DNA of 64,000 nt, taken from assembly GCA_023247705.1 (NCBI GenBank), contig JAHFFY010000009.1, forward strand, positions 1,688 through 65,687, in the 5' to 3' direction. The notes below the pieces were generated by a model. It did no database searches. It saw nothing but the letters and a program-made list of their open reading frames with translations, and was not told the origin of the DNA. Positions 10,254-35,700 of this stretch are shown here, in pieces. This DNA is from Candidatus Omnitrophota bacterium. GTDB taxonomy: Bacteria; Omnitrophota; Gorgyraeia; Zapsychrales; JAHFFX01. Position 1 is the first letter of the stretch; the number at the start of each line of letters is the position of its first letter. A program made the translations under genes and the position numbers.

Positions 10254-10256
10254 TAT

Positions 10257-10685: not shown

Positions 10686-10853
10686 TTTTCCTTTTCCTTT
10701 CTTTTAATCGAATCTCCTATGATTTACCCTCATTTATTCAACCTTTTATTTCTTGATCCAGTTAAAGAGATGGTGAACCTCGCTAGGCTGCGGCCGTAAA
10801 AATAACCGTTAACACGCCATCATTAATTTAGCATATTTTTGCTTCAAATAAAC

Positions 10854-13052: not shown

Positions 13053-13131
13053 CTTTGTGAATTTTTCTACGCTTCTGCGGTAATGTTGGGCGGATTTTCC
13101 GAGGATGAATGTCAGTTGCTAACAAATGATT

Positions 13132-13464: not shown

Positions 13465-13561
13465 AGATGATTTGGATATTTCTTTGCTAAAACAGTCTAT
13501 CACCGGGCGAAAGAATGCCGTGGATGTTGGGAAGGTTGGGATATGATTTCGCATATTTAAA

Positions 13562-15288: not shown

Positions 15289-15340
15289 GGGACATCCCTG
15301 CCATCTTTCGCCTTAGGCAACGGATGGCAGGGATGTCCCT
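15289..15340. promoter_or_regulatory. perfect 16-17 bp inverted repeat (stem-loop) in the divergent intergenic region upstream of mutS
   Basis: GGGACATCCCTGCCATC (15289-15305) pairs exactly with GATGGCAGGGATGTCCC (15323-15339) around a 17-nt loop. It overlaps the ATG of a small minus-strand ORF (15050..15304) and lies ~70 nt upstream of the mutS ATG. Confidence 0.4.
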
Positions 15341-15410
15341 TCGTTCGTCAAAGCCCTGTCCCTTTCCCCAATATTCCTTATTTCCACGATGAACATTTTA
15401 TGCTATAAGA

Positions 15411-18059
15411 ATGCCTATGGAAAATACCACCCCGATGCTCCGGCAGTATAACGAAATTAAAAAACAACATCCGCAAGCCATCCTGTTCTTCCGCCTCGGA
15501 GATTTCTATGAAATGTTTTATGAAGACGCCAAGGTCGCCTCCAACATCCTGGACCTTGTTTTGACCGGACGTTCCAACGGACGTAGCGAAAAAGTCCCGA
15601 TGTGCGGGATCCCGTATCATTCCGCGGAAGGCTACATTGCCAAACTCATCAAAGCCGGATTGAAAGTCGCCATCTGCGAACAGGTTGAAGACCCGGTGCA
15701 AGCCCAGGGTATTGTCAGGCGCGACGTAATCCGCACCATCACCTCAGGAACATACTTAGACGACCAAACAACCGATTCCCGCTATATCCTGGCCCTCAGT
15801 TTTAATGGAAAGGTCTGGGGAATGGCGATGATCGAATCCACCAGCGGCACGATCCAGGCGAACCAATACAGCGACCCGCAGCGGATCATTGAGATCATCG
15901 CCAAGATGCCGATCTACGAATGTATCTTCGCCGAGAATGATGAAGAAAAAATCAAAGAATTATTCCGTCATCATTTGGTCCGTATGAAAAATATCATTTT
16001 AAGCCCTTACGACGACTGGTATTTTAACGCACAGATGGCTAGAAAAAGTTTGTGCGATCATTTCAAGATCCACAACTTAAGCGGCTTCGGCATCGAAAAT
16101 CATCCTTTGGCCCAGGCCAGCAGCGGAGCGCTCCTGGAATATCTCAAGCAGATGAACAAACAACCGCTGCGCCATATCGATAAAATCAGTCTTTATACAG
16201 ACAGCTCTTATGTTTTTATTTCACCCGCCGCCTGTTATGGATTAGAAATGGAAGGCTTGTTAAAATTCATTGATCAAACGCTGACTTCGCTGGGGAAACG
16301 CAAACTGCGATACTGGATTTATCATCCGCTCAAAGACATTCCAGCCATCGAAGAACGACAAGACGCGGTGACCCTGCTCAAGGATTCTGCGGAAATCCAG
16401 CGTGCCCTCGAAAATTTATTGAGAAACACCCCTGATCTTGAAAAAAACATTTCTCGTTTAAGCTGCGGCTACACCTCGCCCAAAGACATGCTGGCGATCC
16501 GCAACACCTTACTGAAAATTCCTCTCTTGCAAGACGCGCTTAAAAATATTCAAAATCAGCTCTTCGCGCTCGAGGACATTCCTGAATTGCGGGAACTTTT
16601 GGAAAAAACGATCAATCCCGAGATGCCCCTTTCCCACAGCGAAGGAAAAGTCATCCGCACTGGATATCATACCGAACTTGATGCACTGAAAGACCTCCAG
16701 GAAAACGGCCGGAAATGGTTACAGAATCTCCAGGCCCAGGAAATCAAACGCACCGGGATCAATTCGCTGAAAATCGGATTTAATCAGGTCTTCGGTTATT
16801 ACATTGAAATCACCAAGGCGAATCTCAACAGCGTTCCCTCCGACTACATCCGGAAACAAACGCTGGTCAACGGCGAACGTTTTATCACGCCAGAACTGAA
16901 AACCTTCGAAGAAAAAATACTGACCGCCGAGGCCAAGATCCTGAAGATCGAAAACGAAATCCTCAATGAATTGAAACAGGAAATCTTAAAACATTCCGTG
17001 GCCTTGCATCATTTTGCCAATCACCTCGCGACGGTCGATGTCCTGTATGCCTTAAGCGTCTTGTCCCGTTTGCCCATTTACATCCGTCCCACCCTTACTG
17101 ATGACACCACCATCGATATCAAAGACGGCCGGCACCCGGTGGTCGAACGGACATCCTCTGATTCCTTTGTGGCCAACGACACCCTACTCGATTGCAGTGA
17201 AAATCATCTGATCATTTTGACCGGTCCGAACATGGCGGGAAAATCGACTTACATCCGTCAAACCGCGATCCTGGTCATCCTGGCACAGATGGGCAGTTAT
17301 ATCCCGGCGACCGCGGCGCGTATCGGGATCGTGGATAAAATTTTTACGCGCATCGGGGCCCACGATGACATCAGCAAAGGACAAAGCACCTTTATGGTTG
17401 AGATGAATGAAACCGCCGACATCCTCAACAATCTTTCCGGGCGAAGCCTCGTGATCCTCGATGAAATCGGCCGCGGGACCAGCACTTCCGACGGATTGAG
17501 TTTGGCCTGGGCCCTGGCCGAACATCTGCAGCAAAAAAAAGTGCGCACCATGTTCGCCACCCATTTTCATGAACTCGTGGCTCTGGCGGAACAATATTCG
17601 GGCGTCAAAAATTATAATGTCGCGGTCAAAGAATGGAAAGATGAAATTCTGTTCCTGCATAAAATCATTCCCGGCGGCAGCGATGACAGCTACGGGATTT
17701 ACGTGGCCAAACTCGCCGGGATCCCGGAGGCCGTAATCCAGCGCTCCAAAGAAATCCTCACCGAGTTGGAATTGAAGAATGATTTAAAAGAAAAGACCAA
17801 GATATCGCCTTCCGGGGAAAATCAATTGTCCTTATTTGGTCAGCCGGCGATCGGGGGCGGCACAGAAAGCAAACTGAAAACCCCGACTGTTTCTGTGCCG
17901 CCCCCTTCGTCCCTTTCATCGTCCCTGATCAAAGAACACAGCGATGCGTTGATGAAAGAAATCAAAGCCATCATCCAGTCCATGGACATTAATTCATTGA
18001 CACCGTTGGCGGCGTTGAATAAGATACATGAGTTAAAAAACAAAATTGAAAAAGGATAA
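15411..18059 (+). CDS. mutS: DNA mismatch repair protein MutS (MutS1 type)
   Basis: It has the N-terminal mismatch-recognition domain (TPMLRQYNEIKKQHPQAILFFRLGDFYEMFYEDA), Walker A (LTGPNMAGKSTYIRQ) and the ABC ATPase signature (STFMVEMNETA...DEIGRGTSTSDG). It is 882 aa. Confidence 0.95.
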   Translation: MPMENTTPMLRQYNEIKKQHPQAILFFRLGDFYEMFYEDAKVASNILDLVLTGRSNGRSEKVPMCGIPYHSAEGYIAKLIKAGLKVAICEQVEDPVQAQGIVRRDVIRTITSGTYLDDQTTDSRYILALSFNGKVWGMAMIESTSGTIQANQYSDPQRIIEIIAKMPIYECIFAENDEEKIKELFRHHLVRMKNIILSPYDDWYFNAQMARKSLCDHFKIHNLSGFGIENHPLAQASSGALLEYLKQMNKQPLRHIDKISLYTDSSYVFISPAACYGLEMEGLLKFIDQTLTSLGKRKLRYWIYHPLKDIPAIEERQDAVTLLKDSAEIQRALENLLRNTPDLEKNISRLSCGYTSPKDMLAIRNTLLKIPLLQDALKNIQNQLFALEDIPELRELLEKTINPEMPLSHSEGKVIRTGYHTELDALKDLQENGRKWLQNLQAQEIKRTGINSLKIGFNQVFGYYIEITKANLNSVPSDYIRKQTLVNGERFITPELKTFEEKILTAEAKILKIENEILNELKQEILKHSVALHHFANHLATVDVLYALSVLSRLPIYIRPTLTDDTTIDIKDGRHPVVERTSSDSFVANDTLLDCSENHLIILTGPNMAGKSTYIRQTAILVILAQMGSYIPATAARIGIVDKIFTRIGAHDDISKGQSTFMVEMNETADILNNLSGRSLVILDEIGRGTSTSDGLSLAWALAEHLQQKKVRTMFATHFHELVALAEQYSGVKNYNVAVKEWKDEILFLHKIIPGGSDDSYGIYVAKLAGIPEAVIQRSKEILTELELKNDLKEKTKISPSGENQLSLFGQPAIGGGTESKLKTPTVSVPPPSSLSSSLIKEHSDALMKEIKAIIQSMDINSLTPLAALNKIHELKNKIEKG

Positions 18060-18154
18060 TCAGTTGTCGGGTTACGGGTTTTACGGGTTAGCGGGTTAAA
18101 TGAGCTAATTTCAAACCCGTTAAACTCGCAACCCGCAAACTCGCAAACTAATTT
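18060..18154. repeat. G/C-rich direct and inverted repeats in the mutS-mutL spacer (possible attenuator/terminator-like structure)
   Basis: CGGGTTA / CGGGTTTTA / CGGGTTA / GCGGGTTA repeats are followed by their complements AACCCGTTAAACTCGCAACCCGCAAACTCGCAAAC. A stem GCGGGTT...AACCCGT is possible. There is no clear T-run. Confidence 0.3.
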
Positions 18155-19966
18155 ATGGGCAAAATACACCTTCTCTCCCCAGATATCATCAGCAAAATCG
18201 CCGCCGGAGAAGTCATCGAGCGTCCGGCATCGGTCATTAAAGAACTCATCGAAAATTCGCTGGATGCCGGGGCGACCGACATTGAACTCCATCTGAAAGA
18301 AGCCGGCAAAACCCTCATTCGCCTGAAAGATAACGGATCGGGAATCGAACCGGATGATCTGGAAAAAATTTTCCTTCGGCATTCCACAAGCAAAATCAAA
18401 GACATCGAGGATCTTTTCAATATTCATTCGTTAGGATTCCGCGGCGAAGCGCTCTACAGCATCGGAGCAGTGGCGGACGTGACGTTAAAAAGCAAGACCA
18501 ACGGTCAGGACAACGGCTGGCAGATCCACATGCGCGGCGGGCAACAATCGCAGCTGAAACCCGTGGTCATGGGCCAAGGCACCGATATCGAAGTGAAGGA
18601 ACTTTTTTTCAACACTCCGGCGCGTAAAAAATTTCTCAAAACCAATTCGACCGAGATCAATCAAATCCTCAATATTTTTCTTCCCTATACGTTGTTATAT
18701 CCCCAATGCCGTTTCCTTTTATCGCATCAGGACAAAACGTTGATCGACCTGCGCTTAAGCAAACAATTGAAAGACCGCATCGCCCAGTCTTTAAACCTCG
18801 AGACCAAACATTTGCTCGAAGCTCAAAAAAATTTTTCGGAAGAAAAAATTTCAATACACATGGTCTTGGGTGACATAAACATTCAGCGGGCTCAAAGAGA
18901 CATGCAGTTTCTCTTCATCAATGACCGCCCTGTGCAAAACCGCGCCATTCTCTTGCGCATGAACCAACTTTACCGTGCGCTCCTCGCGCCGGATGTCTTC
19001 GCGTTCTTCAGCCTCTCTATCGAAATCCCACCGGAAGACGTGGACGTCAACATGCATCCCACCAAAAAAGAGGTCAAAATCAAAAGCGAAACAGAAATAA
19101 TCAATCTCATCAGCGCGTTAGCGCAAGAAACGCTCCTCAGCTGCAGTAAAGCCAAACAGGTGAGCCTTCCAATATCCAAAAAAGAAGAACAAGTGGTGAA
19201 CAATGATCTCTCCTCACCCGTCATTCGCGAAAAACAATCGGCGCAATCATCGTCATCCGTATCTTCTATAAAAAACCTTAAATCCGATCCCGCTGAATCC
19301 ATTGAACCATTCGGCAAATACGCCGCCCAACATTACGCCTTTCAAAACCCTCCCGTCAAGGAAGGCCAAACGGCAAATTTTTTGACCGAAGAAGAAAACA
19401 CGCTGAACTACAAACTTGCGATTGCCCGTTATATCGGGACGTTTATGAAAAAATTCCTGATCTTCGAGACCGGCACCTCGCTTTTGGTCGTCGATCAGCA
19501 CGCGGCCCAGGAACGGATCGCCTACGAAGGATTTATCAAACAAATGAGTTTGGGAAAAATCGAAGTCCAATCGCTGTTGAGTCCATTTCTGTTGAAACTC
19601 TCCAAGCAGGAACTCCTCTCGTGGGAAGAAAACAAAACGAAACTGGAAGAGATCGGAATCAGCACCAACTTGTGGGACAAAGAAACGCTTGCGATTCACA
19701 GCTACCCGCATCTTTTGAAGAAACCCGAGATCGCCACCCGTTATCTCCTATCCGGAGAAACGATCACGTACTGCGACCACGAAACCATCGCCCGCAGGGC
19801 CTGCCGTTCCTCGGTCATGGCCGGAGACGCTATGGGCCCCTCGCAGGTCGAATATCAACGCCAACAACTCCTCAAATGCCAGGACCCGTTCACCTGTCCG
19901 CACGGGCGACCGACCGTCATTGAGATGACGGAAAATTTTCTGGATAAACAATTTTTACGGAAATAA
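18155..19966 (+). CDS. mutL: DNA mismatch repair protein MutL (endonuclease-type C-terminal domain)
   Basis: It has GHKL ATPase motifs (ELIENSLDAGAT; LGFRGEAL). The C-terminal endonuclease motifs are DQHAAQERIAYE, ACRSSVMAGD and CPHGRPT, typical of MutH-independent MutL. It is 603 aa. Confidence 0.95.
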   Translation: MGKIHLLSPDIISKIAAGEVIERPASVIKELIENSLDAGATDIELHLKEAGKTLIRLKDNGSGIEPDDLEKIFLRHSTSKIKDIEDLFNIHSLGFRGEALYSIGAVADVTLKSKTNGQDNGWQIHMRGGQQSQLKPVVMGQGTDIEVKELFFNTPARKKFLKTNSTEINQILNIFLPYTLLYPQCRFLLSHQDKTLIDLRLSKQLKDRIAQSLNLETKHLLEAQKNFSEEKISIHMVLGDINIQRAQRDMQFLFINDRPVQNRAILLRMNQLYRALLAPDVFAFFSLSIEIPPEDVDVNMHPTKKEVKIKSETEIINLISALAQETLLSCSKAKQVSLPISKKEEQVVNNDLSSPVIREKQSAQSSSSVSSIKNLKSDPAESIEPFGKYAAQHYAFQNPPVKEGQTANFLTEEENTLNYKLAIARYIGTFMKKFLIFETGTSLLVVDQHAAQERIAYEGFIKQMSLGKIEVQSLLSPFLLKLSKQELLSWEENKTKLEEIGISTNLWDKETLAIHSYPHLLKKPEIATRYLLSGETITYCDHETIARRACRSSVMAGDAMGPSQVEYQRQQLLKCQDPFTCPHGRPTVIEMTENFLDKQFLRK

Positions 19967-19986
19967 TCTTTATTTAAATCAAATAT

Positions 19987-20015
19987 TTGACGCTGGAGAA
20001 AAACTATTGTATATT
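19987..20015 (+). promoter_or_regulatory. candidate sigma70-type promoter for the small-protein/retropepsin module
   Basis: TTGACG is separated by 17 nt from TATATT, a near-consensus -35/-10. An AGGA Shine-Dalgarno lies ~7 nt before the ATG at 20035. Confidence 0.4.
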
Positions 20016-20034
20016 GTTTGCGATAGGACACACG

Positions 20035-20292
20035 ATGAACAAACCATTCTCCAAAAAACAACCAATCTTGATTGACGACGATTCCTGGCTCAAATCCCAT
20101 TTTGAGTGGCTGATTGATCATTATCCCGGCCAATATGTCGTGGTTGCCAAAGGCGAAGCGTTCATCGGCCGTAACGTCATCGCCCTCGAACGTCAAGCCA
20201 GAGAAAAACATCCTCACGCCACGACAACAGGGATGCCCATCCCGCGACAGCAGGATCTCTTCGCGATCCGCCGTCAGTGGTTTCGTAAATGA
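20035..20292 (+). CDS. small protein of unknown function (possibly DUF5678-like), co-transcribed partner of the retropepsin-like protease
   Basis: The ORF track starts at the TTG at 19987; the first ATG at 20035 gives MNKPFSKKQPILIDDDSWLKSHFEWLIDHYPGQYVVVAKGEAFIGRNV... Its stop overlaps the next ATG (ATGA at 20289-20292). From memory, small proteins of this type (YPGQYVVV.KGE motif) are often found next to bacterial retropepsin-like proteases. Confidence 0.45.
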   Translation: MNKPFSKKQPILIDDDSWLKSHFEWLIDHYPGQYVVVAKGEAFIGRNVIALERQAREKHPHATTTGMPIPRQQDLFAIRRQWFRK

Positions 20293-20702
20293 ACGAGATC
20301 ACCTTTTCGTATAAAACTTACAAAAAAACGCATTACCCCATCATCCCTATCGAAATCACCAATAAACGCACCAAAATCAAAACCAACGCCTACGTTGATT
20401 CCGGCGCTTCATTGTCAGTTTTTTCGATCAAAGAAGCGGTACGGCTGGGCCTGGACCGCCGCAGCGGACGGAAAGCCACGATCACCGTGGGAGACGGAAG
20501 TTTTGTCACGATTCATCTGCACAGGCTTTCGGTCAAAATCGGACACAGCCATCTCAAAGCGACGATCGGGTTTTCTCCAAGACTGAGCGTCAATCTGATC
20601 GGACGGAAAGATATCTTCGAATTTTTTGATATTACCTTCAGCGACAAAGACAAAATCGTTTCGTTTTACCCGCGTAAAGCCTCGATAAAACCGGCGGATT
20701 GA
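20289..20702 (+). CDS. retropepsin-like (retroviral-type) aspartic protease
   Basis: The catalytic motif is AYVDSGASLSVFS (D-S/T-G-A). Downstream is the flap/dimer motif NLIGRKDIFEFF, comparable to ILG.D.L. At 137 aa it is typical of single-domain bacterial retropepsin homologs that act as homodimers. Confidence 0.7.
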   Translation: MNEITFSYKTYKKTHYPIIPIEITNKRTKIKTNAYVDSGASLSVFSIKEAVRLGLDRRSGRKATITVGDGSFVTIHLHRLSVKIGHSHLKATIGFSPRLSVNLIGRKDIFEFFDITFSDKDKIVSFYPRKASIKPAD

Positions 20703-23700
20703 TTTGTTTTTCAAGAAATGGTTCTCGATCAGTCCGGCGACTTTGTCTCTTTCGATCCGGCCAGAAACCACCGCAGCCCAAATCACTATCCTGATCAAAA
20801 ACTCAACAAAAAGATCATAACTTAAAAAATAGATCAAGAGACTACTTCCCATATTCAAAACAGGGATATGTCGCGAAAAGCTCAATTGCGTTCCTGCTGG
20901 TTCTTCAGAGGATCGACTCCGGGGGACGCGCCAAAATTGATGATGTCTTTTTCCTTGGGACGCAAGACCGGGACGATCAGATCGCATCAGCAAGAGCGTT
21001 GCCCCCAAAAGAACAATAAAGAAAAACTCATTGATACCTGCTGACGTTCCAAACGCGATGGTGCGATGGGAATCATCATCTTGTTTTTTTTCTTTTAATC
21101 GCTTTCTTTTTTGTTTTGGCGGACCGAATTGAGGTCTCCCCCGGTCGATTTGTGAAATAACAATCACCGCAGCGATCAATAATAAAACAATAAACGACCA
21201 TCCGGTATGTTCCGTGAAGAAATCCACCAGATCAAAAAAGATTCTTTCAAACGAGATGTCGGTGAAACTTGGGACAAAGCTCATGACAACTTCCTCAGTC
21301 GAACCACTCCTCATTCCTAATTTCACCAATTCCGGTGTATATAACTCTCCCATGCGTGAATAGAAAATATTTTTGATCTCCCAGGGCAGATTGGTTTTTT
21401 CAATAAATTCGTAGGTTTCTTTAAGGCTACGCAGGATTCTTTCCTGGGCCCTCGTCATCCGCGGTGGGGAAAAATTATCGCGGTGATTAAAAACTTTGAT
21501 GAGCTGGGCTGCCCTATATAGAGAAGAACCCGATGCCAGTACCCTGCGCAGATGCGGCACCGCGAAATCCTCCAGCAGCCCCAGGGCGCCGCGTCCGTAT
21601 GGACCACGGTTGAAAAAATAGTATTGATAGGAAGGTTGTTGATTCGTAAAAAAGATCCCCAAGATCAGGAGGATCAATACGGCCGGAGTTGGGACCAGCA
21701 TATTGGCATATAATATTTGCCTTGTTCTTTCGTCTCGATTCGGTTCTTCTATCTGCCTTAAAAGAATCCTTTGCCAATCCGTAAAATCCTCATATCCTTC
21801 TAAAAGCCTCCTGATATCGTCCACGGAAAGATTCGTTTCGCGTAAAACCCGGTGGATCAAGGCCTGGATCCTGATAAAATCCACTTCGGTATGCTCTTCC
21901 CATCGGATCCATTCAGGATGTGCGATATGAAAATATTCCCGGGAACGCTCAGCGAGATTAAAGTGATCGAGCTGTTGCGGATAATTTAAGGAAAGCGCGA
22001 GCAGAACCAAAACAAAGGTATCGACATCGTCGAATTTCGGGTCGGCGATCATTCGTTCGATTATGAATTTCGTGTTGATTCCGTACTGCTGTTCCAAATG
22101 ATTCCGGTCAATAAAAGAATCAAGAAAATCGACGAGGCTTTGCCGGCCTCTCACCATGTCAATCATCTGAGCCAGAAGCTGACCTTTCAACGCGTGAATC
22201 GTGTCCGTAATATTTTCGACCATCCCGATCGAAGGAATTTCTTCGCCTCTTTCCAGCCGGGCATACATCTGGGGGGATAGGCCTGCTTCCTGAGCCACCC
22301 AACCCGATGGCAACCAGAGCGTTAAACGCAACTGGGCCAATTCACGCCCCATGGAAACGGTTGTTTCTCCGTTGATCAGATAACCGATATCGGTCCCGAA
22401 CGCCCATAATCCTCGGATCGAAGTGAATAAGGCAAAATTCTGGATCTGCCAGCTGCGTATCTTATTTAATCCGATCAAATATCCCAGTTGATAATCGCTG
22501 TACCCATTACGCTGTTTCAAACGTTCGACTCTTTCGATAAACAATGATCGCTCAAAGTTGCGAATGTCATCAGGCCCTCCCAATCCCAGCAATAACCAAC
22601 GGACACTCAGATTAAGATAATTGACCAACGATAGAACGCTGGTCCTATAAAGATTAGGGATCCTGCGTTGAGCAGGCAAAACCGCGAGCTGGGATTTAAG
22701 CTGGTAAACCGTCCGGGCCCCGAGGACTCTTTCCTCAAAAAGTTTTGTCCATGAGCTTCCCATGTCCTGTAAACGATCGTTGATCCGCTCCGGAAGATAT
22801 CTCAGACGGTCAAAATAATCCAGAAGCGACGGCCGGGATAAAATGGCAATGGCCTCTTGAATTAAAAAATAGGTGTACGATTTCGAATAGCCTAATGATT
22901 GCACCATTTGATCGATGGTTTTGGGAGCTTCTGAAATTCCTAAATACCCATTGATAAACTTGATCAGCAAAGTAGATTTCAGCATGCCATCGTATCGCCC
23001 ATCGGCCATGCGCGCATAAACATTCTGAATCATTCTGGCCTTAGGGCCATAAATTCGTCCTTCAAGCACGTTTTTCAAGAAAACAATTTCGTCTTTACTA
23101 ATGAATCCTTTCAGCATGGCCTCATCTTCTTGAACCAATCCCCCTAACGCTTCGTTTACTTGTAAATCCAGGGCCATGACCAAACGGACAAGACCGCTGC
23201 CCCGGGAAGGAAACTGTATGGTTAACATCCGTGAGGCAAATTTTGGTTTGACCTCCAGGCGTTGTGCAAGAATTTTGCTGCCGATCCGTTTTCGTCGGGC
23301 AATCGCGCGTAACCGTAACGGAAGAGTTGCGAGATCCGGTTGTTCCATCGTCTCGGATTGAGAAATGATGATATCTTCCATAGGAATTTTGAGATCGATC
23401 AATCTTGCCATCGCGACATTCAAACCGATCGCGATCTTTCTTAAACTTTCGAGTTCCGCGTCACGTCTGCCATTTTCTAGCGCCGGCACAATGCGGTTAT
23501 CAATATCGGCTTGATCGGCTAACTGTTGACGGCCTAATCCTCTTTTTAAACGGACATATCTGATCCGCGCGCCGATGGACTTGACGATTTCCTCCCGGCT
23601 CGGGATCCGGGGATGAGCGTCGAGACGCTGGTCGGGCCTTTTTTCCCAATTCACCTCGGACATCAAGAAAATCATCAATCCTAAGAATAAAATTTCCACC

Positions 23701-26700
23701 CCCAACGCTGGAAATCCGACGACCGCGTAATGCCCTTCGTCATTCGTTCCTTGCAATTGCGCCAATAGGACTTTCTGCCAATCGGTGAGATCTTCGTAGC
23801 CTTCCAAGAGGGTGCGAATATCTTCCAGCGAAAGATGTGTTTCCAAAACAACCCGATCCACCAAATGATGAATTGTTTCTAAATCAATTTCTTCATTTCC
23901 TGGAATCTGGGGTGGAACGGCAAAATTGATATGCACATATTCCGAAGACCGTTCGGCAAGATTATGGTAATCGAGTTCTTGGGGATAATTGAGCGAGAGC
24001 GCCAACAAGAACATCACGAAGGTATCGATGTCTTCAAATTGAGAATCAGCAATCATCCGTTCGATAACGAATTGAGTGTTGATCCCGTATTGTATTTCCA
24101 AATGATTCCTCCGGATAAAATCATCCAGAAATTCGGTCAGACTTTGGTTTTTGCGGACCCGATCAATCATCAGCATTAAAAACTGCCCTTTCAGAGCATG
24201 CATCGTGTCGGTGATTTTCTCGATGATCGCTATGGTCGGCACCTCTTCACCGCGTTCGATGCGGCTATAAACCCACGAAGATATTCCCGATTCCTGGGCA
24301 ACCCAACGTCGCGGAAGCCACAACGATAAACGCAATTGTTCCAGATCACGTCCCATCCCTGCGGTCGTTTCACCTTTGATCAAATATCCGAGATCGGTTT
24401 CGAGTCCCCAAAACGCTTTCGTTGCCGTCAATAAAGCCAACTGCCGGACCGGATGAACTTTAAAATTATCCAAGCCCACAAATCGTCCCAGTTGGCTCGT
24501 TGTGTAACCTTTGCGCGTCTTCAGACGTTCGAGCCGTTCTTCTAACGATGTCGCTTCGACTAACCTCGCGTCTTCCGATGTACCCAACCCTAACAATAAC
24601 CAACGCACATTCACGTCAATGGCATCGGCCAGATCGATCGTTATAGGGAGAAATAAATTATGAACCTTTCGCTGAGCAACAGGAACCCCAAACTGTTCTT
24701 TGAGAAGATAAACGGATCTGTTGTTTGATACAGCCCGATAAAGATCAACCCATTCCATATTTTTTTCTTTTAACCGCAGATCTATCCGATCGGGGATCAA
24801 ACGAAACGCGTTAAAATAATCCAAAATTTCCGGACGGAATAAAACCGCGTAGGCCAGCATCCGCAAACGCTGCACGCGGTGCCGGGAATAACCGGTGGCC
24901 GCAGCAATTTGTGCGAACGATTTCGGGCGTCCGTCCAATCCTAAATATTCACGGACAATCCGCGCCAGGAGTCGCGCGTCAAGCATGTGATCATAGTCTT
25001 CCTTCGACATCCGCTCATAAGCCTGAACCACTTTGCGGGAAAAAGGGCCATAGATTCTTTCTTCCAAAATATTTTTCAATAACATATGTTGTTCTGAGTT
25101 CACAATACGTTCCGGTTGACTTGTCACCGCAGAGATCGAAGCCAAAACCTCAGAAACCTCAGCATCGATCGCGATGATCAGACGGATCAAACCGGTCATA
25201 CGCTCAGGAAAATCCAAGTTAAACAATCGCACCGCCGAAGCTCTTTGAATCTCCAGGCGTTCGGCGAGCTCTTGATAATTCATGCGCTGACGTCTAAAAA
25301 TCGCTAATAGCCTCGCCGGCAAGGTTTGTAAATCGGGTTGAGGCGTAGGCTGTTGCGCGGGAAATTCTTTAAATTCAATCATTGCTTCTTTAACGAGTTT
25401 CAAATCAAGTAAACGCGCCAAAGAAACTTCCATGGCCATGCTTAACTTCATCAAACTTTCAAGCGACGCGTCTCTCTTCCCTTCTTCCAAAGGACCGATG
25501 AGGCCTCCTGATATTTTATATTTTCTTCTTAATTCTGTTCTGGTTAATCCGCGTTCTTCCCGGACATATTGAACCCGGCCACCGATGACGCGCATGATTT
25601 CTTCCCGGTTGGGAATGCGCGGCCGGATGGCCACGCGTTGATGATGTTTTCTATCATCATTAAACTGCGTCATCAGGAAAATCATCACGCCAAAAAAGAT
25701 CCAAGTTATGTCACCCGGTCCGTTGAGCACCGGGAAAGAAAACGCCAATAAACTTTCCGGTGAGTCTGTAGGCCGCCCGAGATGTTCAGGGTTGGCCGTT
25801 TTTTTGAACCGGGAAAGAAACGGATAATCTCTCAAGGCATATACCCATAAGGTGAATAAAACCATGATTTGCCAAAGCAACACGCGCGGTTGAAGCAAAA
25901 ACCCAATAACCAATAACGACGATAGAATTGCAGCCTCCAAAGAAGAAAAGCGGTAAGGAACAAATCGCCGGTCCTTGCGCGGCCACAGGACGTTGAACAA
26001 TTCTTCTCTGTTCTTAAATTGAAAGAGCGAAATCGTCCCTAGCATAAAACTCACGGTGCTCAATCCCAGAAAAATATAATTTTTCGGTTGGGGTAAAACG
26101 AAAGTCAAATAAGACAAAAGAGAAAAAAGATTGATCGAAGCGTGATAAGCGACTGCCGCCACCAATCCCAATCGATAAAAAATATAGCTTAGGAAGAAAG
26201 TGTCCAGCATTCGCAAACTGATCAGAAAATAATCACTCTGCTCATGGAGAATGACAAAAAGAAATGAAATGACGACCGCAGAAATCCCAAAGGCCCACCG
26301 CTGTCCGAGCCGCGATAGAATTTTAACCAAACTTCCCATGGCCACTCCTCGGGCGACGAATTCTTCCGCAATGGCGGCTTGAATGGTTCCCTCGAAACTA
26401 TACGCGAGGATACCAAACCACGAGAAGTCCACCAGCAGCGGAGGTTGATAACTGGCATTTACTTTAAAACGAAGAATCGACCGAATGATCACCGCACCGG
26501 TTAAAAACAAACGCATCAAAATGACCGAATGAAAAGCGATCTTGATCGCATGCAAGAATCCCGGGACCCATTCCTGTGTTCGCACCCATTGCGAACGGAA
26601 AGCGAAGATCAACATCCCTTGGATGAGAATCATTGTCAAGGCTATCTCCAAACCGACGATGACCAAGGACATTTTCGGTTCATCTTGTTTCACCCACGCG

Positions 26701-29700
26701 CTGAAAGATTTCTGCCCTTGATAAAGGATCCTTTCCATGAAGATCTCTTTTCCGGTGGACAATGTTCTTTGCGCCATCATCTCGATGAGATCCAGAGGGA
26801 CTTCAAAAACGTTATATCCCTCCAGCCTTTGCACGGCCTCTTCCTTATCGATGCCGCTTCTTAAATCGCCCACCGGCCTTAAGAAATTTTCCAAATCAGC
26901 ATCGGTTTCCACCTGATGCTTGGGTACGAACCCCACAAACAAGGTCCTGTCGTCAAAGATCAAACGATATAACCGGTAAATGCCCTGGGCCGTATAAACA
27001 TGGTGATAATACAAATCTTTCGACATCAATTTATGATCCGGACGCCTGAGCGCTTCCAGAATCTTTTCAGCCAATCTCCGCCGGAGTTCGGCATTCTTTA
27101 AAATCATGAGTAAATCAAACATGGAAGAATCATCCAGGATAGCGATCTTAGCAATGAACTGCGGAACAACAGCTCCTCCCGGACTCATTGGCCCGTTGAT
27201 CTCCACTGATTCCAGCAAAAATTCGACCCACTCTGCTACGCGCTCGGACACTAACGCGCTTAGGCCGCGCAAGTCGATCGCCAGTTCAATGATGCGTCGT
27301 TCGATGCCTGTATTCTCACCGACAGCCCGAAGATACTCATGATAGGTGCCTTTGAGCAAGGCCTCTTTGATCTCGGTAAGATTTCCCTGTTTTGGAATCG
27401 TAATTTCGCTTAGGTCCAGATTGTTAAACCAATCCAATAAAACCCAGCTGTCGAGTTCCAGGATCAGCAAACTCGCGTCCTCAGCTGAATACGCGGCGGT
27501 TAGAATGTTCTCTAATTCAACCGTCTTTTCTCTATAAAAAGAAATCTCTCGATAATAAACACCCAAACTTGTTTCATTAAAAATTTCCGGATCTAACTCA
27601 ACAACATTGATCCAATAATACAAAGCTTTCTGTTTGTTCCCGATCTTGTGATACGCTTCGGCGAGCTGTTGATCAATTGAAATTGTTCTTTTACCTTGCA
27701 GGACAACGGACTCGAGGTAAGTGATGACCTGAGCCGGATGATCGAGTTTGCTATGAACAAATCCCAAATGTTCATCAAGATCGGGATAATTTTCGTTTAA
27801 GTGTTCGACGCGTTCAAAATCCTCAACGGCGTTCTGGTACTCGCCCAGATATTCATAAGCCAATCCCCGATGGAAATGGCTTTCCATGAGACTCCCGGGA
27901 CCGGACGTCAGGACAGACGGAGCAAGGGCAATGGCCTCGTTAAATTCTTCAATGCCCCATTTCCATTGCTGAATATTCATAAAAGCCATCGCTCTGCGAT
28001 AACGGATCATGAAAGAATCATTGCTCTGTGCATTCATCTGCTCAGGGCTCAACATCATGTCTTCTAAAATACCCACCGCTTGGTTCAAGAGAGGAATCTG
28101 CAAAGACTTTAACCACTCCTTCGCGAGATCGAATATTTGCTTATTCTCCAACCGTTGGCCGTGATTTGCCCGCGCATCCCGAATCCGCAACACCAGTTCC
28201 GGAATACGATCCACGGGAACATAACGGGTCAAATTCGTGACAAATGGCATAAACTTAAGAAACGCGCCACCCTTATCTTCCCAGTTCCTCAAGATGATCT
28301 GTTGAATCATCGACATGAGCGCAACATCGCGGTATGCCTGGGCATCGGGCTGCACCCCATCAAAAAATTGTTTGCGTATCAAAGCCAGACGGACATCAAG
28401 CATATTTTCTCTCAATGGAATCGATTCGGCGGTGATCCCGGGAAACTCAGGTGGGATATATTTTTCTACGCCAGCCCTTTCATATCCCTTAAACGTAATC
28501 ACTTTATTATTATTTCCCGTTAACATCTGTGGGATAAATTCCCCCATGGCGCGCGCTCCATAGTGGTGAATGTATTTGATGGATGCTTCGATCGTCCTTC
28601 TTTGAAGTTCCAAAAACAGATCATCACGGCCATCCAGGAGATAATTATAGGCCCGCTCACTCGCTAAGACCATTCGGCTATAATAGAGACTGACGTCTTC
28701 ATACACCGGACCGATCACGATTCTGATATTCCGATAACCTTCAAGTCTTTTCCCGCGGATGAAATTGAAGAACGCCCGCTCAAACGGATGACGGGGGATC
28801 GTAAAAGCGTTCTTGGTCGAACTTTTTTGATTCTGGCTTTGCCGCCGTTTGTTCTCGGTATCGACCGTCAGCTTGATCCGCTTGACTAAAATGTCATCCG
28901 ATTCATAATCATCCGACAGCAAACGTTCTTTATCCCCTTCTTTGAGCTGTTCTTCATCGATGCTTCCCGTGGCCTGAAGCACGATGACAAAATGCGCTGT
29001 TTTTCCTCCCAATTGGTCAAACATTTGATCGATGGTTTCTCTGGCTTCCTGAAAATCCAATTCCGAATAATAAGAATCATAAATGACCGCCCATCGCAAT
29101 GGATTCTCAACGATATGCACGGAATCAATCGTCTTCTTAAGTCGATTTTGTTCCGATAAGAATGCGTTTAAAAAATCATTGGCGATGCTGCCGTGCAGTC
29201 CTTCGAACAGAACACTCTTCTTCAACGCGTCGATTTGCTTTCCTTTCGAACCCATCGCCAAGATGGGTGTCAAAAGAACCGACAATTCACGGATGTCCCG
29301 GGCAAAATTCTTGGCAAACAAAGCTAGACCGTCCTGATGTCTTTGCCGTTCTTCTTCATCGCGGCTATCTTCGATCTTCTGCGCAAGAATGCGGCTGGTC
29401 ACCTCAATCGCACTTTGAAGGATTAAATTGATCGAATTTCTCTCCGACTCCCGTGAGGAACGTCCTGAACCATTGACCATCATCAAGGACCAAAAACCAA
29501 AACTTAAGATCAACAGAATAACCATTTGATCTATCCCCTCCGTCCCGAGGGCAAATGGAATCGACCAAGCCGATGCAGGCTCATCCGGAAAATCGTCGTG
29601 AGGGAGGGCTCCTTTTTTTTGCGCAGGAGCTCTGGTCTTACTGTCTTTATTGGAGTTTGGTTTCTTTTCCTCGAATCTTTTCTTAGGCGGAGTAGGCCAA

Positions 29701-32700
29701 GAGTATTGACGATCAAAAAACTTTATAAAATTCTTAAGGACATCTTCATACTCCTGGGCCTTCTGAGGATATTCCTGGGCTTTGAGAAGACGGATATAAT
29801 GATTCAAGGCATCTTTAAACCGGCGTTCTAATTCGGACGTTGGATTGGATCCGGGATAATATTTCATCGAGAACAAAGCCGATTCAAAGGCTTCAACGGA
29901 TTGATTCAGTTGTTTTTGATGCAACAAAATTTCGGCCAATAATAAAAGAACATCTTCATCCGATGGATCGTGTTGAAGAGCGACCGAAAGATAATGCGCG
30001 GCGTCTTGCAACACTTGATCTCGGTTCTCTGTCTCGTCACGACCCAATGAATCCAGCCTGGACTTGGCCAATGAAAAAAGTTGGTGAATCACTTCTTCAT
30101 TTAATTTTAAAGCCCAGAAATTCTTATCTATGAACAATCGGCTTTCTTCTCTTAAAGCATCACCCACAATGGCCAGCACTCTATTCTGCGGATCTTTCTC
30201 TATCGCCTTATGAATGTACTTTAAAAAAATTTTACTATATTCCGAATCCATCCATTTCAACGATACGATGATCTGAGCACGACTAAACTCATTTTCACTC
30301 TTCTTGGTTATAAATCCCGGAGACGGCAACAACGATTCAACCGGCCATTCCTGCACATGCTGAGAAAGCCCCTGTTGATTCACCCGGTAAGTTAAGACCC
30401 GTTTATAAATACGAAATCTTTCCTCAGGGGCCGGATCCACAGCAACCGCCAAGTTCACATCAGTAGAAGATACCGCTTTGACCTGAAGTTCGGTATAGGT
30501 AAGCTGTGGATATTGTGTCATTAAAAATTTGATCCAATAGCCCAGTTGTCGATCATTAGCCGGATCAAATACATCCGGCCGTTTTTCTAGAAGCTCGGGT
30601 CTTAAACCGGGCAGGATATCCCTCAGGAATACAAAAATTTCATTATTCGATAACAACAGATCGTTGCTCATGTCCTCTTGCGGATTCTCCATTAAGAGTT
30701 GAGCCGTAAAGACCGCATCGCGAGAAAACTGAACAGCAGAATCACTCCGGGCCAAGCGATCAGAAGGAGATAAGACCAGATTACTCAAAAAGAAAATAAG
30801 AAATAAGAATATAAATCTATTCCAACCGATGGACCGATCTCTGATTGAATATCGCAATCCATCCGCAAGTTTTAGAAATACTCCCCCAATAAATACGACT
30901 CCCAACACAAACAACACGACGACATTGCTATTCAACGACGGGAACAGAATCAATTTAAAATTCATCAAATCGCCTGAAGCGGAATCTTCCTCCACATCTT
31001 GATAATTTGAGAAACGGCCTCGATTGTTGCGTCCGTCGTCTTTTTTCTTTAGAAAGAATTCGTCCGAACTTTGTAATTGAAGCGGTTTCTCATGGTCAAA
31101 ACGCGATAACGGCTGATCCTGGACTTCTTTGTTGACCACGACCGCAATCGAGGACAGATTTTTTTCCCCTTGATCAACATAATTGATCAATTGCAGAACC
31201 AGCCGCTGCAATCCTTTATACGTCGTCGCATTGGCGTGATTGACCTCGGCATTGCCTTCCATCTCAACATACGTTGCTTCCGGGATGGAAAGCCCATTAT
31301 TCATTGTGATAATTCCATCGGTTCCCGGTGTCCCATAAAATCGACCGAGTAAAGATAAATGTGTCGACTCAACGGGATTTCCGGATTTTGTCTTGGTCGA
31401 AATAATAACTCTCAATGGACGGTTCTTTTGGAGTGAAAACTTCTGTTGCAGTGTACGAATAAACCGTTTATTGTCTTCGCCGAACAGGAAGGAACCCAAA
31501 AATGTACGCGCGGCCTCTTTCCCCCACCAATAGGTTCGAAATTCTTCCCACCAGCCTGAAATCCAATTTGTGGAACCCTGTGTCAGGCTGAACGCGGGAT
31601 TGATCAAAATATAGGCTAAAACTTCTTCCCGGTGATCCAGAGACATCAAGCCGGCGGCAACCCCTCCAAAACTATTGCCTACCACGACAAAACGCGCATG
31701 GGGATTCTCCTGTTTAAGCTGATCCAAAACGTCGTTGGCTGTCTTAACATCTTGATTGATCGTTCCGGTAAAATTCTGTTTCAAATTCCTATCTTCAGCC
31801 AACGGAACACTATTGATCTCATGAAACTGACTTAAATAAAATGCAAGTCCCTTCTCTTTGGAGAAATAACCATCGTCGTATTTAGCGCCGACGTTTAACT
31901 CTTCCTTCAACCAGGTTATAAAAGCATTCGAAGGCTCAAGGATCATCCGTCCCGGGAAAAAAACAACAATCGTTTTCGATTCCCGGATTTCTTCTCCCTC
32001 CAATGTAACCGGTTTACTCCAGGAAATGAGCGGAAGATTTTCGGAAAATTTTTTAATTCCGAATTTCATATGGGCGAACATCCGGCTCTGGCCGGCTTTG
32101 AGACCAACGAGGACAGTTTCAAACCAGGCATAACCGGTTATGATCTTTTGCACGGTTGTTACAAACCAGCGCCGTAAAGCCATTGTCCAAGACGGTGCGT
32201 CAAAATGCACTGGAGCCTCGGGGATATAATTGTAAATCTCGGGGGTTTGATGTGATGCCGGGGGGAATGGATTACTGGGGGGCCGCATTTCAGGGATCAG
32301 ATAAGGGGTAGTCAAAAAATATAAAGCCAGATATCCAACCAACGCCCGTTTGAAACGCCCTGCCTTGCGGTCAATGGATAATTTTGATTGTTGACCTAAC
32401 GGGACCGGTGGTGAACGGGGGAAATGCGATTTCCCATTCGCATGGCCATTTCCGTTTTTGAAATGATTCTGAATCCATCTTTTTCCATTCGCATGACCGT
32501 TTCTTTCCGGTGATGCGCCGGATGTCCAAGTATTGATTTTAAAATAAGCTTTTCTTTTATACGGTTCATTGTTCCGACGCCACCATCGATCGGACCGCCC
32601 CCGGCCTCTGTGGTCAGAAACAATCCCAACGATCAACATCGTCAATACAATCCCGATATTAAAGACGACCGCATCGGCATTGATTGCCAAGCCAATGACG

Positions 32701-35700
32701 CCCAACGAAACATGATCCAAAGATTTCAAATTTTGCTCGGAAGCGAGCCAAAAAGTTGTCTTTTGAAATTCGTTGCGTTTCACCAGGAAATAAATCGGAT
32801 TAAATCCTAACTCTCGACGGATTCTGCCTAATACGGTATCTTGAGCGACCAACGACGGGATGGTGACTCTTTTTTGTTTATTAACAATTTTAAAAAATTT
32901 TTCTAAGTCGATGTGCTCAAGGATATAAAACCCCAATGCCTCGCTATATTTCCTATCCGTCGACTCGATCAAAATTAAATCTTGATCCAATTGGGTGTGG
33001 CGGGATTTATTTTGATCGCTGCGGACCATCTTTAAAACTTGAATAACTTCCTGGAGTGTCGGGATATTGTGCACTTGAGCAATCCAGTATGTCATCGGCT
33101 GGCCTGAACTTTCCGCGCTGGTCAAGACATGTCTGATCACCTGCGTAAAAATCCCTCCGCGCTGAAATTGCGGCGTGATCGTCGCGTTGGTCACATACAT
33201 CTCCACTCCGCTTCCCTTCCATCTAAAACGCAAATTCACAACACCCGCCTCCACAGGATCTCCTTGCAGATAAATCCAGATTTCCCAGCCGCTCTTGCGG
33301 CTTGATCGAACCCGCAAATGAAATTTTCTCGATTTCTTATCCGTGATGATAAGCTGCGCGGCGTTTCGCTGAAAGGTTTCCATGAAATGATCCGGGGCTT
33401 GATGGAACACAACCCCCAAAATCATCATCAAACCTCCCAGGAGCCAGAATAATTCAAACGTCTCCACCCATACATATCCTTGAGAAATGCGATCGTCAGC
33501 CATACGCTCCTGACGATCTTCTTGCAAAGGATCGAACCGGATCGGCTGCCCGCGGAATTCCGGGACGGCGATGGCAGCGGCATCTTGCTTTAACAATTTC
33601 ACGATCTCTTGAGTGACCGTCGGGAATTGATGGACCGCCTTCTTGTCTTGAATCAATCTCAGAGCCTGCTCAACTCCCTTTAAAGGAACTTCCTCTAACA
33701 GCGGCACCATTTCCGTTTTTAGGTTCTGGAGATCTTTTAACAATTCCTGAACAGCCGTGCGCTTTTGTTCAATGTTCATTTGACGGTCATTAAAAATCGA
33801 TGGGAGATCATCTTGGGCATACTTCAACAAGAACCCTTTTAGCTGCGCTTTCGCCGCAGATTGTTTTTCTCCGATGCGCTCAAATTGTTCAGCGGCTTCA
33901 AAATATTTCTGATAATCGCCCCCCTCGGCCTGACTCAAAACAAAGGGGAACGATTGAGTGGATCGTTGCACATAGAGTAAACCGGGTTCAAAAACCAATA
34001 ACATGGCGAGTAACACCATCTTATTGAACTTTTCCTTTCCCAGAAGGATTCCGGCGATGGTCAGGAATAAAATCAAGACTAAAACATCGACCATCTTAAA
34101 GCCTTCGGCCAAGACAACTAAACCACGCAAATTTTCTTGCGGGCCTTCGGATTCCGTCAATCCCATACTGGAATCGCCGGGACTGAAGGGTTGCCCCCCT
34201 TCCAACAGGACCCGTAAAAACTCTTTCATCTCCGCCATTAAAGCGAATTCAGTATTTTGAAATATCATCTGATCACCTTGCAATGTTCTTAAAAAAAGAC
34301 GGTGAGGATCGTAGGTGTGATCGACAAAGGCCGTTCCCTTCTCCCCCGTCACGATGACCCGGCGGTCCTGTGGCCATTGATAGTTTCGGCTTAAATAAAT
34401 TCTCACCTCCACATCCCCTGGATACCTTAAGTCCAGATAAACTGTTTCTTGACGATCCCAAGCCGAACGTCGCACTTCCCTGATTTCAGCGGGTTTATCC
34501 TGCCCCAGAAAATAATTAATGACCGAGAGGGAATGCACGCCTAAATCCCATAACGTTGTGCTGGTCGGGTCGATTACACGTCGGGGATTAAGGAATCTCG
34601 CTTCGATTGAACGGATCGTCCCAACAGCCCCTTGTTCCTTGAGATCGATCAAAGCTTTCAATTCACGAAACGATTGGGAATACAAGAGAATATGTCCGAC
34701 CATCAAAAGCAATCCTCTCTCTTTGGCTAAAGCGACATTGTGTCGCGCCTCGCCGAGATTTAACGTGAGCGGTTTTTCCACATAAACATTTTTGCCGGCC
34801 TCCAGCGCGATGCGGGTATGATTAAAATGATCTTGCGCCGGGGTGAGGATCACGACAGAATCAACATCTGGGTCGGTTAATACCACCTCAGCGCTGCCTT
34901 GTATAATTTCCAGATTAGGAAACCGAGCAAACTGTTGTCTCAGTCCCTCAACGGATCTTAGACTTCTCACCGCCAATTTAACTTTAGTCGGTTGGTTCAT
35001 CGCCTCGATCTGATTAAGCAAAGTCTGTAAAACCCTCTGGCCAAACCGTCCCGCGCCGGCCACGCCGATGATTCTCTCCTTTGCAGGACGGACGGCTGAT
35101 TTTTCATGCGATACCATCATAACCAAAAATAAAGCGATGAGAATACCTCCCATCCCCCCCATCGAAGAGGCATCGATCGTTCCCTCGATCAAAGCCCCTG
35201 GATGGACCAAGGCTAAAGAAAATTCTTGAGATTCCGCGGCCGATTCGTCGTAAGATTGATACCTTTCAGCCTGTTCAAAAATCATCTGCAGAAAAATCAC
35301 ATTGGCATCAATCTCTCCCGGTGTTCGGTGGCGTTTCATAAACGCGCTGACTTCTCTCAAGAAATAACGTGGCCGCGACCAGCGCAACAACCGGATCAAA
35401 TCCCAAAAATGCGAAAAGACCGATGATTGATCCGAGGGGGATTCCATCGGCAAAGCCAGATCGGTGTAAAGAAAAAGATCCAGCGTAAACATGGCGGACT
35501 TATTGGAACCGAGCATAATCTGCAAAACCGAGAGATTGACCAGGGCCTTTTGAAGCCGTTCGACCAGCCAGGGTCGCCATTGGCTATGCTGCATAACAAA
35601 ATGACGGAGATCACTGCCCGCTAATTTAACCGTCAGTTCATATTTTTGCGGTTGCTCAAGAGATGAACCGTTCAATCCATTCGACACCGCTTCCCTCAAA

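Follow-up and report, generated by a model that had tools for sequence, protein, structure and literature searches.

The 64,000-nt stretch analysed here (the window; Candidatus Omnitrophota bacterium, contig JAHFFY010000009.1) carries a giant open reading frame (ORF) on its minus strand that converges on a pair of small plus-strand genes located next to mutL. We refer to this pair as the cassette. Its second gene encodes a retropepsin-like aspartic protease, and the 3' end of the giant ORF is read antisense through that gene. Such overlaps of the cassette with very long open frames are found in several other lineages as well, which is the central observation of this study. The coordinates of all features are given in Table 1. 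The giant frame is also free of stops over 63909-64000, i.e., up to the edge of the window, such that its true start possibly lies beyond it and the gene may exceed the 14,497 codons seen here.

Table 1. Features at the 3' end of the giant ORF, and repeated sites at related loci. Coordinates refer to the window unless another contig (L009, L010, L021; see text) is named. TM, transmembrane.
Feature	Coordinates	Strand	Remarks
mutS	15411..18059	+	upstream of mutL
mutL	18155..19966	+	neighbour on which the giant converges
Promoter-like site TTGACG-17-TATATT	19987..20015	+	upstream of the cassette; consensus match only
Small upstream cassette gene	20035..20292	+	85 aa; ATGA overlap with protease start; weak DUF5678 likeness (E 0.07)
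Retropepsin-like aspartic protease gene	20289..20702	+	137 aa; catalytic DSGAS at 20397-20411
Weak terminator-like hairpin	20378..20403	-	12 nt past the giant stop, within the protease gene
Giant ORF	20415..63908	-	14,497 codons; ATG at 63908, TGA stop at 20415-20417
Tail (last 95 giant codons)	20418..20702	-	codon-aligned antisense of protease codons 44-138
Coding-like stretch	20703..20852	-	50 codons with typical giant statistics; holds TM-like segment 3
TM-like segment 3	20781..20837	-	continues the giant's spaced TM-like pattern
Poor-scoring stretch	20853..21152	-	100 codons, open (P 0.0046), Cys-free (P 0.054 given stop-free); holds TM-like segment 2
TM-like segment 2	20985..21041	-	continues the giant's spaced TM-like pattern
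A8 run (21084-21091) and -1 stops	21073..21091	-	in-phase A_AAA_AAA heptamer (GAA AAA AAA CAA, 21084-21092)
TM-like segment 1 (GWSFIVLLLIAAVIVISQI)	21147..21203	-	polybasic KQKRKRLKEKK next to it; coding-like statistics down to 21153
Last giant stretch with detectable homologs	21294..21554	-	4 matches, E 9e-9 to 6e-5
CTCGCCGNTG in L010	1264-1273, 3685-3694, 5557-5566, 5626-5635, 6532-6541	-	
CTCGCCGNTG in L021	251-260, 998-1007		
CTCGCCGNTG variants in L009	~6444, 5655, 588		
Repeat sites in L009	~3900-3990, ~560-590, ~5500-5655		

Over their overlap of 288 nt (20415-20702), the frames of the giant and the protease share the same triplets, i.e., they are codon-aligned on opposite strands. The last 95 sense codons of the giant together with its stop are the antisense of protease codons 43-138, and the TGA of the giant is the antisense of the TCA that encodes Ser43. 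This geometry confirms the statement of a preliminary description of this DNA that the last ~95 giant codons are the exact antisense of the protease gene. In a codon-aligned antisense register, a stop requires TTA, CTA or TCA in the sense frame, and synonymous changes can thus eliminate stops while leaving the cassette proteins as they are. The only TCA codons of the protease are codons 41 and 43 (20409 and 20415). Within 20289-21500, the other two minus frames contain 23 and 29 stops, i.e., one per 10-25 codons.

We scored coding potential along the 3' part of the giant with a 3-periodic Markov model, for which the giant served as training set and stop-free shadow ORFs as null. The codon-periodicity analysis proposed in the preliminary description thereby yields a mixed picture. 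Likelihood ratios (coding:shadow) of 6 to 211 mark 21153-21602 as coding-like, and they drop to 0.37 for 21003-21152 and 0.02 for 20853-21002, which are both poor. For 20703-20852, the ratio is 47, which corresponds to the 42nd percentile of true coding windows and is matched by 0 of 319 shadow windows. The tail itself is ambiguous with a ratio of 1.25.

Two further properties of the giant bear on the position of its native end. First, it contains no cysteine codon (TGT/TGC) among its 14,497 codons, compared to a Cys share of 0.5-1.3% in the other genes of the window and to 32 TGY per 1000 codons in its own two other sense frames. This Cys-freeness of a 14,497-residue product is a separate and strong constraint that merits attention of its own. 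(Arg CGN codons in addition occur at about double the rate seen in the other genes.) Second, 28 TM-like segments are spaced along the giant ORF. If unconstrained, the 100 codons of 20703-21002 would be stop-free with a probability of about 0.004 and the 150 codons of 20703-21152 with about 1.3e-4. Given that it is stop-free, the latter stretch is Cys-free with P = 0.0056, and this is an independent sign that it obeys the constraints of the giant. The TM helix at ~21000-21215, which had been named as the last convincing protein feature, is indeed present (segment 1), but segments 2 and 3 lie beyond it. Nor is 20703-21000 AT-rich as had been described: its GC content is 0.453 compared to 0.45 for the window, and only 20703-20852, i.e., its most coding-like part, is lower (0.40).

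Since the stop-free, Cys-free, TM-like and coding-score signals combine in this way, we place the native end at about 20703. That is, 20703-20852 is probably the native C-terminal part of the giant; native coding most likely runs to the cassette border, and the 95-codon tail would be a passive continuation.

An alternative is that the giant truly ends soon after TM-like segment 1 and its polybasic stretch, i.e., within about 21075-21000, and was opened by stop loss or a frameshift. The A8 run suggests how: the 43.5 kb contain just one other run of A>=8, the run holds an in-phase heptamer, and a -1 shift there meets a tandem TGA TGA (21073-21078) after two codons, at the very place where the coding score falls. 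A homopolymer indel, be it a real mutation, phase variation or an assembly error, would then have joined the giant to a new frame that happens to be open for ~220 codons. The homologs of the giant's end fit such an earlier stop. An exhaustive HMMER search of the last 587 aa against 1.84 billion representatives found four matches, all at query residues 207-298, and these proteins end 94-187 aa past the shared stretch. The A8 run is also not verified by the one other public contig with this sequence, which ends at 20780 (see below). On the other hand, the probabilities given above for 150 codons without a stop and without Cys argue against a frame that is open by accident, as does the coding-like and TM-bearing stretch 20703-20852. 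Furthermore, the 43.5-kb ORF is intact elsewhere, which shows that this assembly does not commonly suffer from homopolymer errors, and the RNA past the A8 run folds no better than its shuffled versions (minimum free energy (MFE) -17.4 kcal/mol vs. -17.1 +/- 2.7, z -0.10), i.e., no stimulatory structure was detected downstream of it. We thus consider this explanation unlikely, and the earlier proposal that an original stop was lost near 21000 is not borne out.

Even less probable, in our view, is that the giant was fused to a separate minus-strand gene for a 145-aa membrane protein that runs from an ATG at 20852 to the stop at 20415. An in-frame ATG (20850-20852) exists, the strongly coding-like stretch 20703-20852 would begin with a TM-like segment, and the 300 nt upstream score poorly. 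Still, no Shine-Dalgarno-like sequence precedes any in-frame start in 20700-21150, no homologs were found, and chance would have to account for the lack of stops (P 0.005) and of Cys (P 0.05) in the 100 codons from TM-like segment 1 to the ATG. Terminator-like sites are absent from 20703-21150 on either strand. The hairpin listed in Table 1 is not significant (4 such sites in the region vs. 2.1 +/- 1.4 expected), and neither RNA families nor tRNAs came near threshold within 19500-21800.

The protease gene is well-formed, as the preliminary description had stated. Its VDSGAS motif occupies residues 36-41; across 34 aligned family members, D37 and G39 never vary, and S38 and A40 hardly do. Two Pfam families, gag-asp_proteas and Asp_protease_2, are matched just above their cut-offs (PF13975, 28.6 bits vs. 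28.2; PF13650, 27.2 bits vs. 24.3), and PF09668, RVP, TIGR02281 and TIGR03698 (23.8 vs. 57.35) stay below threshold. We found 208 homologs of ~130 aa in Omnitrophica, WOR-3, Desantisbacteria, Elusimicrobia and archaea, among the latter Archaeoglobus fulgidus; apart from identical sequences, the closest one is encoded by the scaffold L009 discussed below (61% identity). An AlphaFold2 (AF2) model based on 34 family members reaches a predicted local distance difference test (pLDDT) of 91.3 and a predicted template modelling score (pTM) of 0.82. In a Foldseek comparison with the PDB, its top match is Rickettsia APRc (5c9f; E 2e-6, TM-score 0.70/0.73; range for APRc 0.70-0.79), followed by many HIV-1 proteases, at an identity of only 20-23%. 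Motif, Pfam matches, homologs and predicted clan AA retropepsin-like fold together mark the protease as real, and the single-domain size of 137 aa is consistent with a predicted homodimer and proteolysis. By eye, we see no TM-like segment or signal sequence in it, whereas APRc is membrane-anchored. Its C-terminus extends 11 residues past the invariant F126, compared to a median of 5 in 33 homologs; only one of the 34 proteins has a longer extension, and the pLDDT of this part is low.

To this protease belongs a partner. In all 12 lineages that were sampled (a sample of homologs and not a census), a gene for 75-85 aa lies directly upstream of the protease homolog and overlaps its start, and several of these small genes are marked weakly as PF18929/DUF5678. 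The cassette is mostly found in toxin-antitoxin or mobile islands across many phyla, without giant ORFs. Its usual neighbours are DUF433/PIN-like pairs, ParE, AAA_14/DUF4143 ATPases and transposases, or plain housekeeping genes, and one contig has two cassette copies. PADLOC returns only weak matches, which concern the candidate systems PDC-M52B (E 9e-4) and PDC-M08B (E 0.02), and none for the small protein. Judged from gene content and neighbourhood, the cassette appears to be a small mobile module that resembles a toxin-antitoxin pair.

Beside the window, four other lineages (L009, L010-12, L021, L022-23) carry the cassette wholly antisense inside multi-kb stop-free frames, again in the same codon register. 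The embedded cassette genes of these lineages contain no TTA, CTA or TCA codon. When synonymous codons are resampled according to local usage, the probability of such an open antisense frame is 1e-4 to 3e-4 per embedded cassette. In L009, a scaffold of 11.5 kb, one minus frame is stop-free for 3833 codons (including one 100-N gap) and crosses both cassette genes in antisense; further upstream, this frame encodes PPDK_N and Metallophos domains. In L010, an Omnitrophica contig (39% GC) from a metagenome-assembled genome (MAG), one minus frame is open over all 7006 nt, compared to 87-237 stops in the other frames. Its 2335 codons are antisense to six plus-strand genes, five of which are codon-aligned with it (joint P = 6e-13 for these five by synonymous-codon resampling). 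Four of the six have Pfam matches (DUF433, PIN_10/DUF5615, DUF433 and DUF5615), where the last two matches belong to the small gene and to the protease. Three assemblies of this population (L010-12) agree, save one distant frameshift. For L021 and L022/L023, the frame is open over the whole contig, with a methyltransferase domain in frame downstream of the cassette in L022.

The giant-frame flanks of these loci are homologous neither to each other nor to the giant of the window, and we therefore regard them as independent embedding events. In total, 5/12 lineages have the cassette in physical linkage with a giant stop-free frame, and 7/12 show no giant ORF. Co-occurrence of retropepsin-like genes with giant ORFs in other genomes, the absence of which had been named as evidence against a connection, does exist. 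An arrangement that recurs across lineages also disfavours a lost stop codon as its cause. At the level of ORFs, our results support the earlier suggestion of genuinely overlapping convergent genes, and the four other lineages, which embed the cassette with a frame-keeping choice of codons, strengthen it. Within the window, this suggestion stands as far as the 288-nt ORF overlap is concerned, but the 95 overlapped codons look like passive antisense translation.

Three further cassettes are located outside any giant ORF. In L018 (7256-8017), L020 (9752-10453) and L024 (1590-2276; minus strand in all three), an antisense ORF of 229-254 codons spans just the two cassette genes. For L018, with a GC content of 31%, an open antisense frame has a probability of 5e-4 under local codon usage. 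Such cassettes are either pre-adapted, or recently came out of a giant ORF, or encode an unrecognised antisense product. In five lineages, the antisense frame is closed.

Some embedded cassettes are bordered by a short GC-rich motif, CTCGCCGNTG. It occurs five times in L010 and twice in L021, compared to 0.01 expected occurrences each. The copies are always on the strand of the giant and in the same phase, translate as A/S-S-P-V, and flank each embedded antisense cassette on either side at a distance of 42-145 nt. In DNA of 38-39% GC, the motif is conserved at synonymous positions with GC-rich codons, which points to a DNA-level site that may serve recombination or attachment. At cassette loci that are not embedded, it is absent.

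Repeats were observed around the cassettes of two of these loci. In L022, a 46-aa (138-nt) stretch of the giant frame (SSEYFKSMGKNKRKRTNDYYSVLGILLTPDEIDEFIGRI) just upstream of the cassette (3256-3393) is repeated with 87% identity ~2.3 kb further on (836-973); the cassette and ~1.6 kb are therefore bracketed by a direct repeat. In L009, a partial second junction of small gene and protease is found ~2 kb from the intact cassette, where the antisense reads RTGVESIISVWKNDGAFHSIETKSSGRGIGIQ, and a segment IHA[SP]P...RKRNRIKEN.KNTSAS is present at two places (see Table 1 for the repeat sites). The partial junction and the repeat look like traces of older cassette events in the same open frame.

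Given these loci, one may ask whether the overlap in the window is itself dual coding, i.e., whether the 95 antisense codons are functional and selected such that purifying selection acts on both strands. Besides the embedded frames, which stay open across the whole cassette by non-random synonymous choice, the following points are in line with this. The overlapped protease codons contain no TTA, CTA, TCA, ACA or GCA, where the lack of the latter two is the reason for the tail's lack of Cys. Moreover, the tail scores -0.9, compared to a mean of -10.7 (standard deviation 6.5) for codon-aligned shadows. Other points speak against it. The tail has 0 Leu among its 95 residues, compared to 11.9% in the giant core (P about 6e-6), and is rich in R, F and D, as expected if the opposite strand dictates its sequence; the earlier label 'R/S-rich' does not fit this composition of antisense type. 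Furthermore, 22-31% of such 95-codon shadows are Cys-free, such that the tail's Cys-freeness is uninformative. The probability that protease codons 44-137 avoid TTA, CTA and TCA given the amino acids is 0.01-0.16, depending on the codon-usage reference; with the usage of mutS and mutL, it is 0.16, i.e., openness is compatible with chance given a GC-rich codon bias. The frame is also closed by two TCA codons and by several further stops in the small gene. Finally, an open frame that is kept does not imply that the encoded sequence is selected, and no homolog aligns to the tail: none of the four HMMER matches covers it, and a profile search with antisense-cassette translations came back empty. 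Dual coding in the window therefore seems improbable to us, and we regard its own feature as modest, i.e., a 288-nt terminal overlap with a tail that is probably junk.

A different link between the two genes would be functional: the protease might process a polyprotein-like product of the giant and for this reason be repeatedly encoded at or in giant genes. The make-up of the giant could be read in this way. Its last third (~20418-35108) contains Pfam domains of the types GFO_IDH_MocA (~34329-35069), alpha/beta hydrolase, TPR and Rce1-like CAAX protease as well as at least five XRE-type helix-turn-helix domains, i.e., unrelated domains in a chain with TM-like segments between them. This part resembles a series of ordinary single-gene proteins. 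No Pfam match was obtained for the first 4800 residues, and none of the matches in the whole giant ORF (E <= 0.001) is a SecA-like, dockerin or C39 peptidase domain. In favour of processing, one may also cite the association with giant frames in 5/12 lineages, the in-phase A/S-S-P-V motif that flanks the cassettes of L010, L021 and L009 and could in principle be a cleavage site, and the best fold match: APRc is reported to process large rickettsial autotransporters. However, the protease is encoded on the opposite strand with its own promoter-like site, and 7/12 lineages have the cassette without a giant ORF, including distant phyla such as that of Archaeoglobus and usually within toxin-antitoxin or mobile islands. 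DUF433/PIN-type cassettes are embedded likewise in L010, and the flanking motif points to a DNA-level site. Within the giant of the window, there is no recurring linker or cleavage motif, i.e., neither an over-represented 4-6-mer nor an [AS]SP motif. We thus consider such a pairing very unlikely. The idea of a Gag-Pol-like processing enzyme, put forward speculatively in the preliminary description, is not supported; the cassette occurs in WOR-3, Desantisbacteria, Elusimicrobia and archaea, mostly without giant ORFs.

The large minus ORFs of L009, L010 and L002 (a relative of the window, see below) have normal Cys content. We also looked for further embedded genes among the ten largest plus-strand ORFs within the giant and within the large ORF of L002, none of which has a Pfam match.

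Aligning orthologous loci in order to see where homologs of the giant end had been suggested, but neither the MutL anchor nor homology search located an orthologous giant. A word-indexed search with the last 661 aa of the giant gave no match. The nearest MutL relatives are three Omnitrophota MAGs with 50-55% identity, and in these relatives (L002-L004) mutL is directly followed by a convergent minus-strand gene, with neither a cassette nor a homologous giant. One of them, L002 (a complete Omnitrophota chromosome, OY759724.1), has a minus-strand ORF of 3330 codons (11734-21726) that overlaps the 3' end of mutL (10001-11800, plus strand) by 67 nt and is not homologous to the giant of the window. 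A MutL-anchored scan of a metagenome collection yielded only a Margulisiibacteriota contig.

The one other public contig with the sequence, Logan contig L001 (SRR14366787), is 100% identical to 19065-20780. It ends within TM-like segment 3, 78 nt past the protease stop, which could reflect a branch of the assembly graph near the cassette boundary.

Regarding codon usage in the neighbourhood, TTA, CTA and TCA make up 2.2% of the codons of mutS and mutL, compared to 3.1-7.0% in seven genes at 572-14821. The codon-aligned antisense frames of mutS and mutL have open runs of 199 and 164 codons, and the antisense frame aligned with the small cassette gene is open from about 20300 to 19857, i.e., into mutL.

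Taken together, we favour, with moderate confidence, the explanation that the cassette was inserted at the 3' end of the giant and that giant ORFs of this group tolerate such insertions while staying open. The cassette would have come to lie between mutL and, facing it head-on, the 3' end of a giant membrane-protein gene of the Omnitrophota type, presumably by insertion at or just inside that end. As there is no stop at ~20703, ribosomes would continue into the cassette, in antisense and aligned with its codons, until the first antisense stop, i.e., that of Ser43 TCA beside the catalytic DSGAS. The last 95 residues would then be a mere by-product whose sequence the protease gene determines, and the ~6 additional codons at the protease's own C-terminus could be the mirror effect on the other strand. 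Tolerance in giant ORFs might arise since only frame-preserving insertions survive or since the cassettes are pre-adapted. The tail would be translated, and convergent transcription may couple the expression of both genes.

Several observations weigh against this explanation. For the window itself, the antisense frame over the protease may be open by chance, as its openness does not reach significance alone. The giant frame would meet ~6 stops in the small gene, such that the cassette of the window is not fully open. CTCGCCGNTG is absent from the window save a look-alike at chance level (20689-20698). The coding statistics of 20853-21152 are shadow-like (0.02-0.37), and the giant continues for 292 aa past the stretch shared with its four homologs, i.e., further than any of these. 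Since our searches brought up no orthologue for the C-terminus of the giant, its ancestral end is inferred and not seen. Lastly, independent assembly confirms only 19065-20780 of the window and not the A8 run.

A broader version of the favoured explanation is possible, and we hold it tentatively. Here, small conserved cassettes including toxin-antitoxin-like pairs, such as that of the DUF5678-like gene and the retropepsin, would insert antisense and in frame into Omnitrophota giant genes as mobile units, which in some lineages are bounded by CTCGCCGNTG. Both strands would stay coding, as synonymous choice in the cassette genes would keep the giant ORF free of stops over hundreds of antisense codons. 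Such cassettes would be a class of ORF-preserving mobile elements, with the longest selected antisense dual coding described in bacteria. The window would then be the terminal case, in which the cassette supplies the stop of the giant.

The arrangement matters for annotation, since gene callers cannot represent it: in the contigs examined, either the giant ORF is cut at the cassette or the cassette genes would be dropped. Lengths of giant proteins as well as inventories of toxin-antitoxin and defence systems in Omnitrophota are thus likely mis-annotated. If the frame is truly kept open, these loci would be natural, repeated dual-coding experiments that show how much arbitrary sequence a giant membrane protein tolerates, and they would provide a concrete route by which giant genes gain sequence.

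We finally compared the locus with known systems. Genes embedded antisense in other genes have been reported, e.g., pop antisense to ompA in enterohaemorrhagic Escherichia coli (EHEC; PMC7103648) or pairs of 957 nt and 1536 nt in Pseudomonas aeruginosa (PMC8850804). Common to these and our loci are the long antisense ORF overlap and a register in which synonymous choice avoids stops. In the known cases, a young small ORF lies in an ordinary older gene, whereas here old, widespread and mobile families lie in frames of multiple kb up to 43 kb. For the window, in contrast, the overlap comprises only the terminal 288 nt of two predicted reading frames. Spurious long antisense ORFs are referred to as shadow ORFs (AntiFam, PMC3308159; PMC3454372). 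The last 95 codons resemble them in that they occupy the classic shadow register and have a composition of antisense type. Unlike shadow ORFs, the tail is contiguous with a real gene of 14,400 codons and would thus be translated unless the ribosome is stopped, and the related loci are depleted of TTA, CTA and TCA far beyond chance (1e-4 per cassette, 6e-13 in L010).

Giant genes of Omnitrophota have been described (bioRxiv 10.1101/2023.11.21.568195, with Archaeovorin and Dockerin types; bioRxiv 10.64898/2026.06.07.730766). The giant of the window shares with them the Omnitrophota affinity (via MutL), an ORF of more than 10,000 codons and many TM segments to near the C-terminus. Unlike the Archaeovorin and Dockerin subtypes, it shows no SecA-like, dockerin or C39 domain in Pfam, and we file it under neither. 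Neither antisense or nested genes nor stop codons or cysteine came up in a term search of both preprints. More generally, a recurrent, codon-purged embedding of conserved cassettes in giant ORFs does not appear in the literature that we searched.

Bacterial retropepsin-like proteases are known from Rickettsia conorii (APRc; PMC4140852, PDB 5c9f) and Pseudomonas aeruginosa (RloA-C; PMC11957051), where the Rlo enzymes are secreted according to the title of the latter report. The protease of the window has in common with APRc and Rlo a single-domain clan AA fold, the D-S-G-A motif and, at ~130 aa, a length implying a homodimer; unlike these, it is always paired with a small DUF5678-like gene. In contrast to Gag-Pol, it is located outside the transcript and ORF of a putative substrate and on the opposite strand. 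The A8 run recalls dnaX-type -1 frameshifting by its in-phase A_AAA_AAA and a -1 stop (here tandem) a few codons on; unlike at dnaX-type sites, a stimulatory structure is lacking (z -0.1), and the likeness is a lead only. The cassette as a whole comes close to type II toxin-antitoxin and integron cassettes, i.e., it consists of two small co-directional genes with an overlap of 4-13 nt, is patchy across phyla, resides in islands with DUF433/PIN, ParE, AAA_14/DUF4143 and transposase genes, and is in some cases bounded by a short repeated motif. It differs from both in that it has no recognised toxin or antitoxin domain, attC-like site or nearby integrase.

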